Part shown: positions 7,344 through 58,366 of the stretch, one piece after another | Layout of the letters: each line of letters begins with the position of its first letter | Numbering within the stretch: position 1 is the stretch's first letter | Virus record (IMG/VR): IMGVR_UViG_3300027792_000013 | Coordinates: 32,001 to 96,000 of that record | Strand: one strand, 5' to 3' | From: a virus | DNA length: 64,000 nucleotides | Notes under the pieces: generated by a model | Database searches by the model: none | What the model saw: only the letters and a program-made list of their open reading frames with translations | Told to the model about the DNA's origin: nothing | Program-made: the position numbers and the translations under genes

Positions 7344-7501
7344 TTAATTTCTCCTTTTGAGTTAAAAAGTGAAGATTTAGAAACCGGAATTGAAATAAAA
7401 ATAACGTTTTTTATATTAAATGATAAATCTTTTAATGCTTTCCAGGATTCCTCTGGAATTTCTTGGGTGTCTTCAATGTACTTTATTTTTTCCATTTCCA
7501 T
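7232..7501 (-). CDS. hypothetical protein
   Basis: ORF in operon; its 3' part overlaps the next gene. Confidence 0.45.
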   Translation of the reverse strand: MEMEKIKYIEDTQEIPEESWKALKDLSFNIKNVIFISIPVSKSSLFNSKGEIKCHKLKKFRHFSKLSIPTSINSISSQKNKKRLATKKK

Positions 7502-7719
7502 TTTAATTGATATTTTTCGCTTTTACTCGGGATTTCGGTAACTTGAAATAATGCCTCTTTTACAATCGAATTTAAAAAAGTTTCTCCAATTTTTCCAATA
7601 CATAAATCTTTTCGATTGTCTTCAACTACACGCATTATTTCTGGCATGATTTTTTCTGCTAAAACCATTCCACTTTTAGTTAATCCCCATTTTTTCCAAA
7701 TACAACCATTTTTTACCAT
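7483..7719 (-). CDS. hypothetical protein (probable leaderless start MVKNG at 7719)
   Basis: ATG lies 7 nt downstream of the TATAAT of the 7727-7753 promoter. Confidence 0.6.
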   Translation of the reverse strand: MVKNGCIWKKWGLTKSGMVLAEKIMPEIMRVVEDNRKDLCIGKIGETFLNSIVKEALFQVTEIPSKSEKYQLKWKWKK

Positions 7720-7726
7720 TTCGTAT

Positions 7727-7753
7727 ATTATAAATGAAATCAAAGAAAAACTT
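7727..7753 (-). promoter_or_regulatory. AAGTT-N16-TATAAT promoter
   Basis: TAAAGTT, 16 nt, TATAAT. Confidence 0.65.
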
Positions 7754-33491: not shown

Positions 33492-34001
33492 TTAGCCTTC
33501 TATGATAATCATATTGTTTTCGGTTTCTGAAAACTCTAATCGATACAACTCAATTGAATTATCTGATTTTATTGTTTCAATAATTTCTGGAATGATTTTT
33601 GAACTAATATGACGAAAAAATATTCGGCCTAAAATTTCAGAGGTTAGACTGTTTGATTCCAAAGGACTAAAGACGATAATCTTTTCTGGATAAATTGAAA
33701 ATTCTTTTTCTTTTTTAGTAACTACCGGTAAAGTTGGAAACATTTGATGTAAAATTGGATCTTCGGAAGATAAAAATAAAGCGTGATCAATAGTTTTAAA
33801 AAAGTCTTTAATGGGCTTCAAATCATTGAAATCTATAATCATTCCAACGTTATTCAAACTCCCACCTAAAAAAATAGATACTACTCCGCTGTGACCATGA
33901 AGATTTCTACACGCACATTCTATATTATAAGCGGTTTTTTTCTGATCATAGATTCGATGAGCATATTCAAATCTATATGTTTTTTTGATTGATGTAGTCA
34001 T
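33492..34001 (-). CDS. queD: 6-carboxy-5,6,7,8-tetrahydropterin synthase
   Basis: AHR, CRNLHGHS (CxxxHGH), GMIIDF, DHA, TSE, ETE. Confidence 0.9.
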   Translation of the reverse strand: MTTSIKKTYRFEYAHRIYDQKKTAYNIECACRNLHGHSGVVSIFLGGSLNNVGMIIDFNDLKPIKDFFKTIDHALFLSSEDPILHQMFPTLPVVTKKEKEFSIYPEKIIVFSPLESNSLTSEILGRIFFRHISSKIIPEIIETIKSDNSIELYRLEFSETENNMIIIEG

Positions 34002-34228
34002 TTCTTTACCTCGATTATTGCAACCCCACCCAGATAATTCAAAGCTACTAAATATTCATGGGATTTGTAGTTAAGAATATAAACATCAGCTGCTAGGTTA
34101 GTACTTCCCATTTCACATAGTTTCGAATATGAAACATCTTTTGTAATGTAATAGGTGTTTAACCCAAACAATAACCCAATCCCTAAAACACCAACCAAAC
34201 ACAAAATTATTGTTTTTTTACATTTCAT
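33998..34228 (-). CDS. small membrane-anchored hypothetical protein
   Basis: N-terminal hydrophobic helix; leaderless start 6 nt after TATAAT. Confidence 0.6.
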   Translation of the reverse strand: MKCKKTIILCLVGVLGIGLLFGLNTYYITKDVSYSKLCEMGSTNLAADVYILNYKSHEYLVALNYLGGVAIIEVKK

Positions 34229-34234
34229 ATCTAT

Positions 34235-34261
34235 ATTATATAATAGATTTGTAAAAAACTT
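34235..34261 (-). promoter_or_regulatory. AAGTT-N16-TATAAT promoter heading the queD-queE operon
   Basis: TAAAGTT, 16 nt, TATAAT. Confidence 0.7.
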
Positions 34262-38929: not shown

Positions 38930-39943
38930 TCACTCAATCAGTGCTTCTTCATGTAATTTCAAAAACATTTGAACGAGAACGTCCTTGTTTATATTTGGAT
39001 CTACAATAGTATCATCAAAATAACATTTTGCCATATCAATTACACTTGAAATTGATTCCAAACTTTTATTTTCAATAACAGCTCTGATATCGGCTTCAAG
39101 TTGAATCTCCTTTAATTCGAAAATATTTTGTTTTTTCAGAGACCCCACAAATGCTTCATATTTTTGTTTATCCGTTATTTTATATTGTACTAGCTTTACT
39201 ATTTTGTTATTAAAATCTTTTTCTAGTACTTTTATCATGTCTTGATCATCATTGTAAATGATTTTTTCGAAAATCTTTATGTTGGTTGGAACGAATTCTA
39301 GTTTACCATTGTCTTCTAAAATATAGTAACCATGTTCATAATCAATTTCTCCCCAATCTAACTCCAGAATAGATCCGACATATAAAATATTGTTTTGTTG
39401 TTGACGTCTGTGCCAATGTCCACTAAATACCATCTCGTATTTAGAGAAGTCATTTTGGGATAATCCTTGTTTTGCTATAATTCCTCTTTGATATTCAAAC
39501 CCAGAGATTTCAAAATGACCAAAACAATAACGAGCACTAGCAAAATTAACGTTGCCCCAACCTAAAAACTGATATTTGTTTGATAGTAATAAATTATTCG
39601 AAACTACAATAAAATGTTTTTGATCTTCACCTAAAATCTTTTTGATAACTAAAGGTGAATTAACATCACTTGTATTTCTATAGAAACAATCATGGTTACC
39701 TACAATTTGTATCCAAGAGACTTTTTTGTCTTTAATTGGTTCTATGATATCAGATATCATTTGCAAAAACGAAGTTGTTTTTATTCCTTTTTTGTCATTA
39801 AACACATCACCAAGTTGGACAATAGTTGTGTCTTTCGTTCTTGGATCTTCCCAAAACTTTTTGAAAAATTGTCCTAACCAATAGTCATGAATATCCGATT
39901 TCCCATAATGTAAATCACCTAAAATAATCATTTGAATCTCCAA
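38930..39943 (-). CDS. gp47: recombination nuclease subunit (Mre11/SbcD-like)
   Basis: GDLHYG, LGDVF, VGNHD, GHFE, SGHWH, YVGS. Confidence 0.94.
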   Translation of the reverse strand: MEIQMIILGDLHYGKSDIHDYWLGQFFKKFWEDPRTKDTTIVQLGDVFNDKKGIKTTSFLQMISDIIEPIKDKKVSWIQIVGNHDCFYRNTSDVNSPLVIKKILGEDQKHFIVVSNNLLLSNKYQFLGWGNVNFASARYCFGHFEISGFEYQRGIIAKQGLSQNDFSKYEMVFSGHWHRRQQQNNILYVGSILELDWGEIDYEHGYYILEDNGKLEFVPTNIKIFEKIIYNDDQDMIKVLEKDFNNKIVKLVQYKITDKQKYEAFVGSLKKQNIFELKEIQLEADIRAVIENKSLESISSVIDMAKCYFDDTIVDPNINKDVLVQMFLKLHEEALIE

Positions 39944-40161
39944 TACTTAACATTTCGATTGATAAACTTTCTGTCCATAGATTCAACCAATCCATCTTTT
40001 TTAAATTTGTTTAAACATTTACATATTTGTTTGTTGATTCTTTTGACATTTCCCGATGTTGAATATTGCTGTAGCCAGGTCAAATATTTCATAGTTAATA
40101 CATGAGTTCTTGTCCACTCAGATGTTAAAGTCGAACAAATAAAATGTCTTATTGTTATCAT
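39928..40161 (-). CDS. small basic hypothetical protein (possible winged helix)
   Basis: 77 aa, L......GLVES pattern, leaderless start. Confidence 0.55.
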   Translation of the reverse strand: MITIRHFICSTLTSEWTRTHVLTMKYLTWLQQYSTSGNVKRINKQICKCLNKFKKDGLVESMDRKFINRNVKYWRFK

Positions 40162-40167
40162 ATTGTT

Positions 40168-40194
40168 ATTATAAATGAAGTCATAAAAAAACTT
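40168..40194 (-). promoter_or_regulatory. AAGTT-N16-TATAAT promoter heading gp47-gp46
   Basis: TAAAGTT, 16 nt, TATAAT. Confidence 0.7.
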
Positions 40195-45632: not shown

Positions 45633-45659
45633 ATTATAAATTAAAACTAAAAATAACTT
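45633..45659 (-). promoter_or_regulatory. AAGTT-N16-TATAAT promoter for uvsY-uvsW
   Basis: TAAAGTT, 16 nt, TATAAT. Confidence 0.7.
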
Positions 45660-53669: not shown

Positions 53670-53940
53670 TAGTACGAAAATCTTTTAAAATTTCTTCTTG
53701 TATATCATAAACTTCTGTTGAATTGTCCTCAAATTCTGGGAAAAGAGATGCTATTTGTCGCCGTATATTTAATTGTCCAGTACTTTTTCTACCGTTTATT
53801 GCTGCAATAAAAATCTTTGTTTCTATAATTTTAATTATGTCATTTTCGGGATTGAGTGTTGATTGGAAACTTATTTTCTTTGCGATATCTGGTGTTATGT
53901 ACATTTTTTTACTCCTTTTTGTTACCGCATTCAACTTCAA
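53602..53940 (-). CDS. hypothetical protein (likely start MYITP)
   Basis: ORF with GGAG RBS before MYITP. Confidence 0.6.
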   Translation of the reverse strand: MKLNAVTKRSKKMYITPDIAKKISFQSTLNPENDIIKIIETKIFIAAINGRKSTGQLNIRRQIASLFPEFEDNSTEVYDIQEEILKDFRTIGFETEFFDGEPSISWEKNEKL

Positions 53941-54223
53941 AACTAAAGTTGATAAATTCGCTATTAATGGATGCTGTACGTTGAATATAGATATCTATAG
54001 CAAATTTGCCCAATTTAATCATATCAAGAGTATTGTTACTTTCATCACATATAACACTATGGCCGAATATTATGTTTGCGTATTTTAATAAATTTAATTC
54101 CAATTCAATCTTTGTTTTAATCCAACTCCTATGAATTTCATCGTTGGGTTTAAAAATCAATTTTTCAATTATCGGTTCTGTAATTTTCTTTATTTTTGTT
54201 ATTAATTCTTCTTTAGTTATCAT
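53909..54223 (-). CDS. stand-alone tail-sheath C-terminal domain protein
   Basis: FKPNDEIHRS...VICDESNNT...FAIDIYIQ aligns by eye with gp18 FQNNDEFTRS...TVCDTTNNT...FVGDIYIK. Confidence 0.75.
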   Translation of the reverse strand: MITKEELITKIKKITEPIIEKLIFKPNDEIHRSWIKTKIELELNLLKYANIIFGHSVICDESNNTLDMIKLGKFAIDIYIQRTASINSEFINFSFEVECGNKKE

Positions 54224-54269: not shown

Positions 54270-54539
54270 CTATTGTTCTGGCACGTAGTTCGCCGGATCG
54301 CCAGCAACATAAGCGTTTTTTCCCAATGCTGCCATTAATGCACCCAAAAAACCACAAAGCAGCATCGTCTTTTGTTCTTCATCGCCTCTATAATATGCGT
54401 CATAAAACAATTTTCGCTCGGTTTCGGATGCCAATAATTCCGGATTACAACACGAAAAATCTGGACAACATTGACCTGATTCATAATCATGCCGCGAAGT
54501 ACCCTTTAACCACAATTCTAGTTGTTTTTTTTGAGTCAC
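54270..54539 (-). CDS. hypothetical protein with CCPDFSCC motif
   Basis: GTG start after AAGGGG; 89 aa. Confidence 0.7.
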   Translation of the reverse strand: MTQKKQLELWLKGTSRHDYESGQCCPDFSCCNPELLASETERKLFYDAYYRGDEEQKTMLLCGFLGALMAALGKNAYVAGDPANYVPEQ

Positions 54540-54551
54540 AATTTACCCCTT

Positions 54552-54804
54552 AAAAAAAGGCCAGCGGGCCGGTCGCTACTCCGGCTTGCTCCGGTTGCCG
54601 ACAACCGTAAGTCGCATATGCTGCGTAATGTGGGTAAGTCGGTGTACCTAATCTCCGCAGCGAAGGCGTGTCCGCGATTTTCCACGCCGCCGCTGGCCGT
54701 ATTATTGCTTATGGACAGAGGGCCGGTGTTCTTAGCGCGCTCCAACCGGCGGTTCCATTTGGTTTTAGTACCCCGGATTGCTCCGCCTCTGTCCATATTA
54801 TTGC
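54552..54804 (-). ncRNA. putative structured RNA or cis-element: two GC-rich multibranch domains ending in a U7 tract
   Basis: Stems 54710-54721/54786-54797 (12 bp) and 54559-54567/54690-54698 (9 bp), internal hairpins, GCAA tetraloop; GC far above the flanks. Confidence 0.6.
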
Positions 54805-54871
54805 GGGGGCCGGGCCTGTCAATTCTTTTGATTTCATCTTCTACAGAGTTAATTAATTCACTCATGACTAA

Positions 54872-54898
54872 ATTATAAAGTAGAACAGAAAAAAACTT
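54872..54898 (-). promoter_or_regulatory. AAGTT-N16-TATAAT promoter
   Basis: TTAAGTT, 16 nt, TATAAT; ATG at 54865 lies 6 nt downstream. Confidence 0.7.
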
Positions 54899-54903
54899 AA
54901 TGA

Positions 54904-55146
54904 TTACGCAGTTTTAATTTGTTTTTCTTGAGATGTTAACCTATTAATTTCATCTCTCTTTCGTTTTATCTGAATTCGAATTTGCTCTATTTGTCTTGCT
55001 GTATCACGATTAAGAGTTTTGCTTGATCTGACATGTTTAATTTGATTTTCAAGATCTGCGATTTGTTTGTGCAATCGTTCTTTTTGTGCTTGTTTGTATA
55101 TCTCGGTTGACTTATCACCTTCTAAAAAAATTTCTGTGCCTTTCAT
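54904..55146 (-). CDS. small coiled-coil protein (start revised to MKGTEIFLEG)
   Basis: AAGGAG RBS before ATG at 55146. Confidence 0.65.
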   Translation of the reverse strand: MKGTEIFLEGDKSTEIYKQAQKERLHKQIADLENQIKHVRSSKTLNRDTARQIEQIRIQIKRKRDEINRLTSQEKQIKTA

Positions 55147-55157
55147 TTTAAATCTCC

Positions 55158-55661
55158 TTATTCCCAAGTTACATATAAAAAATTGACAGTGAATTCCAAA
55201 GGTTGATTGGTAAGATCCCAATTCAATGGAACTTCGGAAACCTCTTCCGGAATACAATCCTTGAACGTAATTGTTCTTATAGTTTGCATTGATCTATTAT
55301 AGACATCAACTATTACATCGGATTTAACGTTATCGAAAAAATCAACAGTCAATGTTTTTTTCGAATAAATTGCGTCAAACCATTTGCTAAACCCATTCCA
55401 TACTTTAAACTCAGAATCAGAGAAAAATGTTACTGGTAACAAACTGAAATTTAATCCACTTGGAACATTCAGTTTTAAACCATAATATGAGTACCCAGAA
55501 GAATTTAATTTTTGGCTTGGGAGTACTGCCCCTTTTGCAAAAAAGGTGCATCCAAATCTTCCCATATCTCCAAAATATTTTTGACCATTTGAAACAGTGA
55601 CCTTGAACTTATTTGTTACCGCTACATCTTTGAATTGTGATTTAAATTGTTCAAGGTTCAT
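55158..55661 (-). CDS. tail tube paralog / baseplate tube initiator (gp54-like)
   Basis: F......A..NKF.V, A.LPS, VTF..D, W...I, P.....L.WD, F.V.F.Y..W. Confidence 0.8.
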   Translation of the reverse strand: MNLEQFKSQFKDVAVTNKFKVTVSNGQKYFGDMGRFGCTFFAKGAVLPSQKLNSSGYSYYGLKLNVPSGLNFSLLPVTFFSDSEFKVWNGFSKWFDAIYSKKTLTVDFFDNVKSDVIVDVYNRSMQTIRTITFKDCIPEEVSEVPLNWDLTNQPLEFTVNFLYVTWE

Positions 55662-56173
55662 TATTTTGTGGTGTCACTTGTCCAATAATCATACTTAAAT
55701 GTTACTGAATATTCTTCTGGAGTATCCGTTGTATCCCAAGATAAATTGATTACATCACCACAGTTTTGTGGATATGCCCCTACGATAGTATATGATTTCA
55801 AAATTTCCTGTTTACTACCTAATTGAACTACAAGAAGATCTCGTTTTACCTCTTGAAGTAAACTAAATCCGATATTTTGTTTTGTATTATTTATTAGCTC
55901 GCCCCATTCTTCTAGTTTTCGTCGAATTGTATATCCGATGTCATTATATACATGTACCGTCCAATCTTCATAGTCAGGATCTCCAGGAATTTGAACTTTT
56001 CTACCCATAAAACTCATTGCAAATCCCCCATTACTTTTCGTGGGAATAGAAGCCCCTTTGCAATGAAAACTATGATTCAGTGGGGTTCCTGTTGGAAATT
56101 GAAGAGTAACTAGAAATAACGTCGGTCTAGCGACGTTACCAAACATCGCTTTATATCCTTCAATACTTAGCAT
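55661..56173 (-). CDS. gp19: tail tube protein
   Basis: ARP.LF.V, CKGASIP, FMGRKV.IPGD..YEDWTV..YND, LSWD.....EE..VTF.YDYW. Confidence 0.93.
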   Translation of the reverse strand: MLSIEGYKAMFGNVARPTLFLVTLQFPTGTPLNHSFHCKGASIPTKSNGGFAMSFMGRKVQIPGDPDYEDWTVHVYNDIGYTIRRKLEEWGELINNTKQNIGFSLLQEVKRDLLVVQLGSKQEILKSYTIVGAYPQNCGDVINLSWDTTDTPEEYSVTFKYDYWTSDTTK

Positions 56174-56188
56174 TATATCCTCCTTTGG

Positions 56189-56229
56189 TATAACCAGGAG
56201 GGGATCTTACAAATCCCCTCCTGGTTATA
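56189..56229. terminator. 17-bp perfect hairpin between gp23 and gp19, no U-tract
   Basis: tataaccaggaggggat-cttacaa-atcccctcctggttata. Confidence 0.65.
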
Positions 56230-56255
56230 TTAACTTCTATTACTACGAGCACTTT

Positions 56256-57662
56256 TTACAGATTGGTGATCGTAATGTATCTGTAGTACAGATGCGCACC
56301 AAAAGGATTTTCACCTAGACCGTATCGAGTTTGGAACCAGATCCTGGGCTGACCGTCTTCTTCACCAATACCCTTTTTGATTGTCAGTGGAACATAAGGG
56401 CAATAGTAAAGACCGGCATCCCATTCTGAGGTACCTTTGTAGCCAACGACACAATAGTTAGATGTTGCATAGATATCAACATAGACTTTGTACTTATGAC
56501 CCAGGGTTCCAATAAAAGCACTATTTCCGAGATTAACATCTCCAATACCATAGTCGGTATTTCCGGGACCGTAGTGCTTAAACATTGGAAGACTTTCAAT
56601 CATTGAAGCTACATCAAGACTACAAACAATGAAATTGCCCCGACCTCGTAAAGTATCCTTTGCGATTTGGTTACCAGTTTTGTTGAACTTTTGAATCATC
56701 GACCAAGTCTTTTCTAGGCTCCAACGACCATCCGCATCACCACCTTCATCAATACTCAAATAGTTGAAAGTTGAAGTTCCACCCAACTGAGCCTTTTCAA
56801 TTAGCTTGTCCAAAAATCTTTTGTTCATTTCAACTGCCACTTCATTACCAAGGGCTTTGGTAAGTTCAGCATCAGCATCCATACCATGAACTGATTTCAA
56901 ATCCTGGGCAAGTTCATCAGTGAATTTAGCTTTTAACCGATAGTTATCAGCTGTTACTGTCACTTTCTCGATGACCATTCCGAGTTCTCGAATCCCGGTT
57001 GTTGCAGCTTCTGCAGCAGCAACATTAGCGAACTTTCCATATTCTTTGAAGAGGAACCGGAAATGAGCTTCGTTATCATAATAAGAACTAATTGTGGTTT
57101 CCGCACTAACGAAAGGATTTGCGTTATCAACGCTATCATCTTCCGCAAAGCTACCCGAAGTGATTTCTACCAGTACTGTATTGCCTTCCTTGTATCGAAC
57201 AACACCAACTCCGGCTCCACTACCATTACTGGTAATGGCTCCTTCTTGTACGAAGGCAGCCGCAGAACCTAAAACCATAACACAGGAATTTGAAGCCTTT
57301 ACGGGGTAAGCCGTGTTATTATGATAAACAGTTTTCATACAAAAAACTAAGCCGCTAGGACCAGTCATTGGCTGAACACCAAAAAGATCCATACCAATTA
57401 GTTGAGGAAAACCTCTTCGAATAACAGAGACTAGAACGGGTTCATACTTCTGTATATCGCCCGTTTCTGTCTTTTCTGCTAACAGGTAATCTTGTTTTTC
57501 ATTTTCCAAAAGAACAGCCATAACAGATTTTTGACGATCTGTTAAGGTCGGATACCCGACCCGCTCACTCAAAAATCCAGGAATCTCTTGATTGGTTTTC
57601 GGATCAATGGATGGTTCTGACCATTCCTGAAGTAATTGTGGAATAGGTTTAATTTGTAACAT
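56256..57662 (-). CDS. gp23: major capsid protein
   Basis: LLEN, RR..P.LI..D..GVQPMTGPSGLVF, ELAQDLK.VHG.DA..EL, TLRGRGNF, DAGLYYCPYVPL, TRYG. Confidence 0.97.
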   Translation of the reverse strand: MLQIKPIPQLLQEWSEPSIDPKTNQEIPGFLSERVGYPTLTDRQKSVMAVLLENEKQDYLLAEKTETGDIQKYEPVLVSVIRRGFPQLIGMDLFGVQPMTGPSGLVFCMKTVYHNNTAYPVKASNSCVMVLGSAAAFVQEGAITSNGSGAGVGVVRYKEGNTVLVEITSGSFAEDDSVDNANPFVSAETTISSYYDNEAHFRFLFKEYGKFANVAAAEAATTGIRELGMVIEKVTVTADNYRLKAKFTDELAQDLKSVHGMDADAELTKALGNEVAVEMNKRFLDKLIEKAQLGGTSTFNYLSIDEGGDADGRWSLEKTWSMIQKFNKTGNQIAKDTLRGRGNFIVCSLDVASMIESLPMFKHYGPGNTDYGIGDVNLGNSAFIGTLGHKYKVYVDIYATSNYCVVGYKGTSEWDAGLYYCPYVPLTIKKGIGEEDGQPRIWFQTRYGLGENPFGAHLYYRYITITNL

Positions 57663-58358: not shown

Positions 58359-58366
58359 TATTTATA
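58359..58366 (-). promoter_or_regulatory. T4-type late promoter TATAAATA
   Basis: Exact consensus upstream of gp22. Confidence 0.8.

Follow-up and report, generated by a model that had tools for sequence, protein, structure and literature searches.

A GC-rich island in a T4-like phage genome that may specify a two-domain structured RNA upstream of accessory genes

In ribosome-coupled attenuators of the pyrBI and trp leader type, a ribosome that trails the polymerase blocks formation of the terminator helix. In tandem-aptamer riboswitch leaders, such as the glycine riboswitch, two homologous domains act on one expression platform. Ribosome-binding sites can also be masked over long distances, as between the coat and replicase genes of MS2, where masking is combined with translational coupling, while RNase III processing stalks enclose structured RNAs in both rRNA and T7. 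The RNAs of type III toxin–antitoxin systems are built from several near-identical tandem repeats of ∼34–45 nt, and are accompanied by a terminator and a gene for an endoribonuclease toxin. In phage T4, rnaD and rnaC (species 1 and 2) are tandem small stable RNAs of 119 and 139 nt that lie 6 nt apart. Little of the structured regulatory RNA of virulent phages has been charted; what is known from T4-like phages is mainly their tRNAs together with rnaC and rnaD, which are still unexplained. Where a genome is AT-rich, GC-rich islands between genes are an established sign of structured RNA (PMC6429828).

Here, we describe such an island in a T4-like phage. The window, the whole stretch of 64,000 nt that we analysed, comprises bases 32001–96000 of a 115.9-kb IMG/VR viral contig with a GC content of 31%. 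An earlier note on this DNA had pointed to a GC-rich element in an AT-rich genome, and indeed the GC content of the island is 55–62% (57% overall), with sharp boundaries. No other island in the 116-kb contig with 50% GC or more lies outside an evident protein-coding gene; the remaining ones are all within long open frames, and those that we checked are evident genes. One of these, a 337-codon frame open from stop to stop on the minus strand outside the window (G000:C1:23646-24656), includes a 580-bp stretch of up to 62% GC and looks like a horizontally acquired gene of the DNA methyltransferase type. Thus, the phage genome tolerates GC-rich coding DNA, some of it seemingly acquired horizontally, and high GC alone is no proof of an RNA. 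The evidence considered below indicates that the island most likely specifies an RNA of ∼310 nt with its function in its fold and not in an encoded protein.

The genes that flank the island are all on the minus strand, and all coordinates of the element are read on that strand (Table 1). The order of the tail-tube genes after gp23 is unlike that of T4. A perfect 17-bp hairpin that lacks a U-run (56185–56238) separates the capsid gene from the first tail-tube gene and is likely a partial terminator or an mRNA-stabilising hairpin after the major capsid gene. On the other side of the island, the protein that resembles the sheath C-terminal domain is part of the cassette downstream of the element, and beyond its gene there are small ORFs, followed by the baseplate hub.

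Table 1. Positions of the element, its candidate signals and the neighbouring genes (window coordinates unless a contig coordinate is given)
Feature	Position	Strand	Remarks
gp23-like capsid gene	56256-57662	minus	
Two tandem paralogous gp19-like tail-tube genes	55661-56173, 55158-55661	minus	directly downstream of gp23
117-aa coiled-coil ORF	between tail-tube genes and GC-rich island	minus	
Phage promoter AAGTT-N16-TATAAT	54872-54898; -10 hexamer 54872-54877	minus	recurrent motif
Further AAGTT-type promoter copies	45633-45659, 40168-40194, 34235-34261, 7727-7753, 500-526	minus	
ATG, predicted transcription start and leaderless start codon of ORF109	54863-54865	minus	6 nt past the -10 hexamer
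ORF109 (109 codons)	54536-54865	minus	spans whole element; TGA overlaps GTG at 54539 (GTGA)
AU-rich 5' leader segment complementary to 3' flank	54837-54864	minus	
TTGACA-N16-TAATAT	54795-54822	minus	sequence match; GC-rich spacer; second hexamer overlaps tag 1
Tag 1, GCAAUAAUA	54796-54804	minus	single-stranded, 5' of domain 1
Domain 1, four-way junction	54710-54797	minus	MFE -38.3 kcal/mol, z = -3.7
Tag 2, GCAAUAAUA	54700-54708	minus	linker between domains
Domain 2, five-way junction	54559-54698	minus	MFE -64.2 kcal/mol, z = -3.4; 9-bp GC-rich closing stem
U7 run	54552-54558	minus	terminator-like; directly after domain 2 closing stem
3' partner of the leader: SD AAGGGG (54546-54551), GUG (54537-54539) and first codons of 89-aa gene	54532-54551	minus	
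89-aa Cys-rich protein gene	54270-54539	minus	next gene after island
Stand-alone 104-aa protein	53909-54223	minus	only sheath C-terminal domain matched (PF17482, phrog_23)
Leaderless-start ORFs besides ORF109, in window	33998-34228, 39928-40161, 7483-7719	minus	
Leaderless-start ORFs elsewhere on contig	G000:C1:2521-3126, 100743-101138		

Two candidate promoters had been proposed for the element in the earlier note, and they fared differently. The upstream one belongs to a recurrent motif of this phage, AAGTT(T/C/A)-N14–19-TATAAT, of which the 116-kb contig holds 20 copies on the minus (coding) strand but only 2 on the plus strand. Most of the promoters of this type have a start codon within ∼35 nt, either an ATG with a Shine–Dalgarno sequence or a leaderless ATG. 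The motif differs from the T4-type late TATAAATA sites, which are borne by the structural genes (for example at 58366, 52303, 49104 and 46966). Moreover, a gp59-like helicase loader has a promoter of the AAGTT type, which argues that the class is early or middle and not late; thus the motif is probably the early/middle promoter class of the phage. The inner TTGACA-type promoter exists as a sequence, but five such sigma-70-like sites were found where 4.5 are expected, which is chance, and the TTGACA-type sites in the contig show no coding-strand bias. Neither recurrent promoter class has another member in the interval from the U7 run to the next genes.

Leaderless mRNAs seem to be in regular use in this T4-like phage. 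Of the 20 AAGTT-type promoters, six are followed by an ATG only 5–8 nt past the TATAAT hexamer, and the ORFs opened in this way, which are 76–201 aa in length, have no Shine–Dalgarno sequence. One of the six is the gp59-like helicase loader (phrog_269, E = 8e-10), another encodes a clear signal-peptide protein, and a third is ORF109, the 109-codon frame that runs through the island. The earlier note had described this frame and its overlap with the next GTG start, and we located both.

The predicted fold of the minus-strand RNA is composed of two multi-helix junctions, each preceded by the same 9-nt tag, GCAAUAAUA, at the two places reported for it previously (Table 1). Domain 1 consists of a 12-bp closing stem (54786–54797 with 54710–54721), a CGGA-GCAA-UCCG hairpin with a GNRA-type GCAA tetraloop, a GGUAC hairpin and a GCCGGU/ACCGGC hairpin; the long stem, the tetraloop hairpin and the GCCGGU/ACCGGC stem are those of the earlier description. 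For domain 2, the 9-bp closing stem (54690–54698 with 54559–54567) and the GGCGUG/CACGCC and GCUGCG/CGCAGC stems were likewise recovered, but in the minimum-energy fold, CGGUUG/CAACCG takes the place of the proposed CGAC/GUCG stem. As previously noted, U7 follows the closing stem of domain 2 at once. This end is terminator-like in that a 9-bp GC-rich stem precedes the U-run, but the stem closes a multiloop of 128 nt, which would be unusual for a terminator. In addition, a local hairpin of 5 bp was predicted by the terminator scan, its T-run beginning after 3 nt. Near the 3' end of domain 2, CCGG occurs three times within 26 nt, and we speculate that alternative pairings of these segments could act as a switch.

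Both domains are more stable and better defined than expected from their composition. With domain limits that were picked after the folds were seen, none of 200 shuffled sequences was as stable as domain 1, and the z-scores on the plus strand were weaker (-2.1 for domain 1 and -2.7 for domain 2, versus -3.7 and -3.4 on the minus strand); the z-score of the whole predicted transcript was -3.9. Similarly, the ensemble diversity was 6.6 for domain 1 and 10.7 for domain 2, compared to shuffle medians of 19.6 and 33.4, and the frequency of the minimum-energy structure of domain 2 was 0.16, compared to a median of 0.008. In the GC-rich methyltransferase-like gene of the same phage, used as a control, z was never below -1.9 in 36 windows, but in the gp23 coding sequence it reached -3.1 to -3.6 in 3 of 22 windows. 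Thus, the stability of the fold supports the RNA reading but does not by itself decide the matter.

The two domains are, from their sequences, paralogues, and domain 2 carries insertions. Their similarity is significant both locally (P < 0.001) and as a collinear series (P = 0.001). The common segments are the tag with the 5' arm (19 of 22 positions identical), the GGUAC hairpin and a GGAGC...ACCGGC segment that runs into the 3' arm. Each arm of the closing stem differs at three positions between the domains; at two of the pairs, the change is fully compensated, with A-U replaced by C-G, and the comparative support for the stems consists of these two compensated pairs between internal paralogues only. 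The spacing is 96 nt for the 5' repeats, which are hence in the same reading frame, 154 nt for the 3' repeats and 191 nt for the CGGAGCAA.CCGG repeat. Since two of the three repeated segments are in different reading frames, the likeness of the domains is at the level of the nucleotides and not of a protein.

The ends of the predicted transcript are also complementary to each other. When the RNA from 54865 to 54510 was folded, nucleotides 2–29 paired with the U-run, the Shine–Dalgarno sequence, the GUG and codons 2–3 of the 89-aa gene in four helices with a total of 22 bp. The energy of this duplex is -16.7 kcal/mol, compared to -7.1 ± 2.4 for shuffled sequences (P = 0.002), and it is similarly exceptional among 1729 genomic 33-mers (P = 0.0035), although the pairing was seen only after folding and both P values are therefore optimistic. 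Several of the pairs are G-U, such that the complementarity is specific to the minus strand. The Shine–Dalgarno sequence of the 89-aa gene begins one base past the U7 run. Thus, the element has the layout of a cis-regulatory leader: it lies between a promoter and a Shine–Dalgarno sequence, with the U7 run and the predicted pairing of the leader with the ribosome-binding site.

Neither the element nor the phage has close relatives in the collections that we searched. The whole window gave no match in Rfam 15 at the gathering threshold, and even at E ≤ 10, the region 54300–55100 yielded only a chance plus-strand match to CRISPR-DR25, which scored 15 bits where the gathering threshold is 36. ARAGORN at default settings reported no tRNA or tmRNA in the element, and at thresholds of 60–80% made only spurious calls, one of them on the wrong strand. 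These results agree with the earlier remark that the element could not be matched to tRNA, tmRNA, RNase P or a ribozyme. The element is single-copy in its own contig, and blastn found no match to it in phages, plasmids or E. coli genomes. Patterns of the tag with its arm and of the two arms had zero matches in viral and genome collections, and looser patterns had only chance matches in GC-rich coding DNA. Nothing beyond chance was obtained with the patterns in 185,579 species genomes, although an exact-pattern scan is insensitive. With a covariance model of domain 1, no other match was obtained in the window, and none in 50 complete phage records or the T4 rnaC/rnaD region; no related sequence was found in metagenome collections.

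The gene downstream of the element is much better represented. The 89-aa protein, in which an invariant QLELWL...CCPDFSCC motif is combined with a hydrophobic C-terminal segment, is one member of a phage family that has no name but is widespread, with 114 viral and 393 metagenome stretches. It has no match in Pfam or PHROG, and its homologues start at the same residue. We compared 80 viral and 80 metagenome loci of this gene and found the element upstream of the homologue in none of these ∼160 loci, by blastn, nhmmer, tblastx or upstream GC; thus the element is not a conserved leader of the 89-aa gene family. A tail-tube query identified no relatives of the phage, and a capsid query identified 63 loci in IMG/VR with 27–42% identity (most ∼30%), none with the element. 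By this measure, the phage is an orphan, with its nearest capsid protein 42% identical. The same phage is present in a 21-kb Logan contig.

If the island were a protein gene, ORF109 would be a real leaderless gene for a small, basic, disordered protein, acquired from GC-rich DNA or evolved within it, with an RNA structure that is incidental. The earlier note had implied that the frame could be dismissed, and here we disagree: its ATG stands at the leaderless position of this phage, as in five other ORFs including the helicase loader, its frame is open through the GC-rich core with a chance probability of P = 0.032, its stop codon overlaps the next start (GTGA), and the phage tolerates other GC-rich genes. 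However, the opposite strand is also fully open across a 118-aa frame, without homologues, and ORF109 found no homologue but itself among 1.84 billion representatives, and has no Pfam or PHROG family. Its Atlas model has a pLDDT of 0.41 and a pTM of 0.20, and a comparison by features found no look-alike in the Atlas. The GC content by codon position in its GC-rich part is 0.49/0.60/0.64, and the product is rich in Arg, Gly and Ser; a second-position value of 0.60 and this richness are typical of translated GC-rich non-coding sequence. Furthermore, the repeats lie in different frames, and changes in the stem are compensated at the RNA level. Thus, in homologues, fold and composition, ORF109 does not look like a protein gene, while its start context and open frame are compatible with translation, and we consider a functional ORF109 protein improbable. 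The frame may well be translated, but in order to unfold the RNA and to couple the next gene, not for its product.

Two other explanations do without a coding function. The island might be non-functional or selfish GC-rich DNA, either a horizontally acquired fragment or a REP- or MITE-like palindromic pair that came from a host or a different phage, inserted behind a promoter that once served a small gene. Its sharp compositional boundaries, its units with inverted terminal arms and a repeated flank, its absence from all homologous loci, and the precedent of GC-rich acquired genes on this contig are what such DNA would lead us to expect. Yet the single copy in the contig and the lack of matches in the phage, plasmid, E. 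coli, viral and genome collections speak against it, tblastx and a protein search of the island revealed no coding remnant, the folds favour the transcribed strand, and inert DNA is not expected to show compensated arms, strand-specific G-U pairs and complementarity of the leader to the ribosome-binding site; we regard this origin as unlikely. Somewhat more doubtful still is the idea that the domains act in trans as two separate stable RNAs, either tRNA-like decoys or sRNAs, that are cut apart at the tag and have no role in cis. A promoter of its own precedes the element and its end is terminator-like, a single-stranded AU-rich tag is repeated ahead of each domain, and the tandem pair rnaD/rnaC is analogous: in a T4-like phage, there are two adjacent structured RNAs of ∼100–160 nt on one strand. 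The T4 pair, however, lies in a tRNA cluster, and rnaC has a tRNA-type T arm, whereas here no tRNA is adjacent (the only tRNA of the contig, a tRNA-Met, is ∼60 kb from the element), there is no T loop, and ARAGORN found no tRNA-like gene at normal thresholds. There was no blastn match to rnaC or rnaD, and the domain 1 covariance model gave no match to either beyond background, so that membership was rejected and only the tandem layout is analogous. Stand-alone RNAs would also leave unexplained the complementarity of the leader to the start site and the Shine–Dalgarno sequence one base past U7.

The reading that we favour is that the island is an RNA-level element, a structured leader or gate that possibly also yields a stable RNA, to which we give an even chance. 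The claim of an undescribed non-coding RNA or attenuator-like leader is thus partly supported (no Rfam, tRNA or tmRNA match, a recurrent promoter, a stable fold, and paralogous domains with compensated stems), while the inner promoter is not. Transcription would start at ∼54865 from the early/middle phage promoter, and the transcript of ∼310 nt would comprise a 43-nt AU-rich leader, a GC clamp and the two paralogous multi-helix junction domains, each after GCAAUAAUA. We propose a gate that acts in cis on the downstream accessory genes. In the folded RNA, the closing helix of domain 2 and U7 would terminate transcription and leave a compact, stable two-domain RNA; in a read-through transcript, the 5' leader would pair with the Shine–Dalgarno sequence and GUG of the 89-aa gene and mask both. 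A ribosome that initiated on the leaderless AUG and trailed the polymerase would prevent the domains from folding and suppress termination, and upon stopping at the UGA that overlaps the GUG, it would couple expression of the 89-aa protein to translation of the leader frame. Transcription, termination, masking and coupling are all inferred from the DNA, and the specific mechanism of the gate is less certain than a function at the RNA level. The two domains likely also have a trans-acting, ligand-binding or protein-binding role, because a plain attenuator would not need them.

A bolder possibility, which we advance only tentatively, is that the element is the first known representative of a new phage RNA class, an early/middle, tandem-paralogue, two-domain RNA that combines sensing with a two-way decision. 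It might sense a ligand, a protein or the capacity of the cell for leaderless translation, with the outcome either release of a compact stable RNA or read-through that unmasks an accessory cassette hidden by 5'–3' closure. The element is in any case a genuine, unusual and well-delimited candidate structured RNA, to which several independent and individually modest lines point, and since these come from one sequence, it is a lead and not a result. If real, it unites a strand-specific promoter class, leaderless translation, tandem junction domains, a terminator formed by a domain-closing helix and long-range masking of a start site, and would offer a compact, experimentally tractable case of transcription–translation coupling by which a phage times its accessory genes.

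Several described systems resemble parts of this arrangement. A type III toxin–antitoxin locus was considered and rejected, as the element has only two units (∼97 and 150 nt) that are alike only at their ends, and the downstream 89-aa protein is not in a Pfam or PHROG family. Also rejected were a replication-origin R-loop (there is no marked G skew), a group I or II intron, a retron non-coding RNA and a CRISPR-like array, as well as a tRNA, tmRNA or tRNA-like RNA, as ARAGORN gave no credible cloverleaf. As in the pyrBI and trp attenuators, a promoter-proximal open frame crosses a terminator-like end just upstream of the next gene. In contrast to those leaders, the frame here has 109 codons, is leaderless and has no evident regulatory codons, a 140-nt five-way junction supplies the putative terminator in the form of its closing helix, and there are two elaborate paralogous domains for which attenuation has no need. 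Unlike the tandem-aptamer riboswitches, the element has no Rfam riboswitch match even at E ≤ 10 and implies no ligand; no homologues were found, the homologues of the downstream gene are without it, and its covariation consists of the two pairs compensated between domains 1 and 2. Like the glycine riboswitch, however, it places tandem homologous junction domains between a promoter and a single putative platform, a terminator-like end or a ribosome-binding site. Two further likenesses are predicted only: as in the RNase III stalks of rRNA and T7, ∼22 interrupted base pairs would enclose the whole folded body, and as in MS2 coat and replicase, a distant upstream segment would pair with the start site of a downstream gene.
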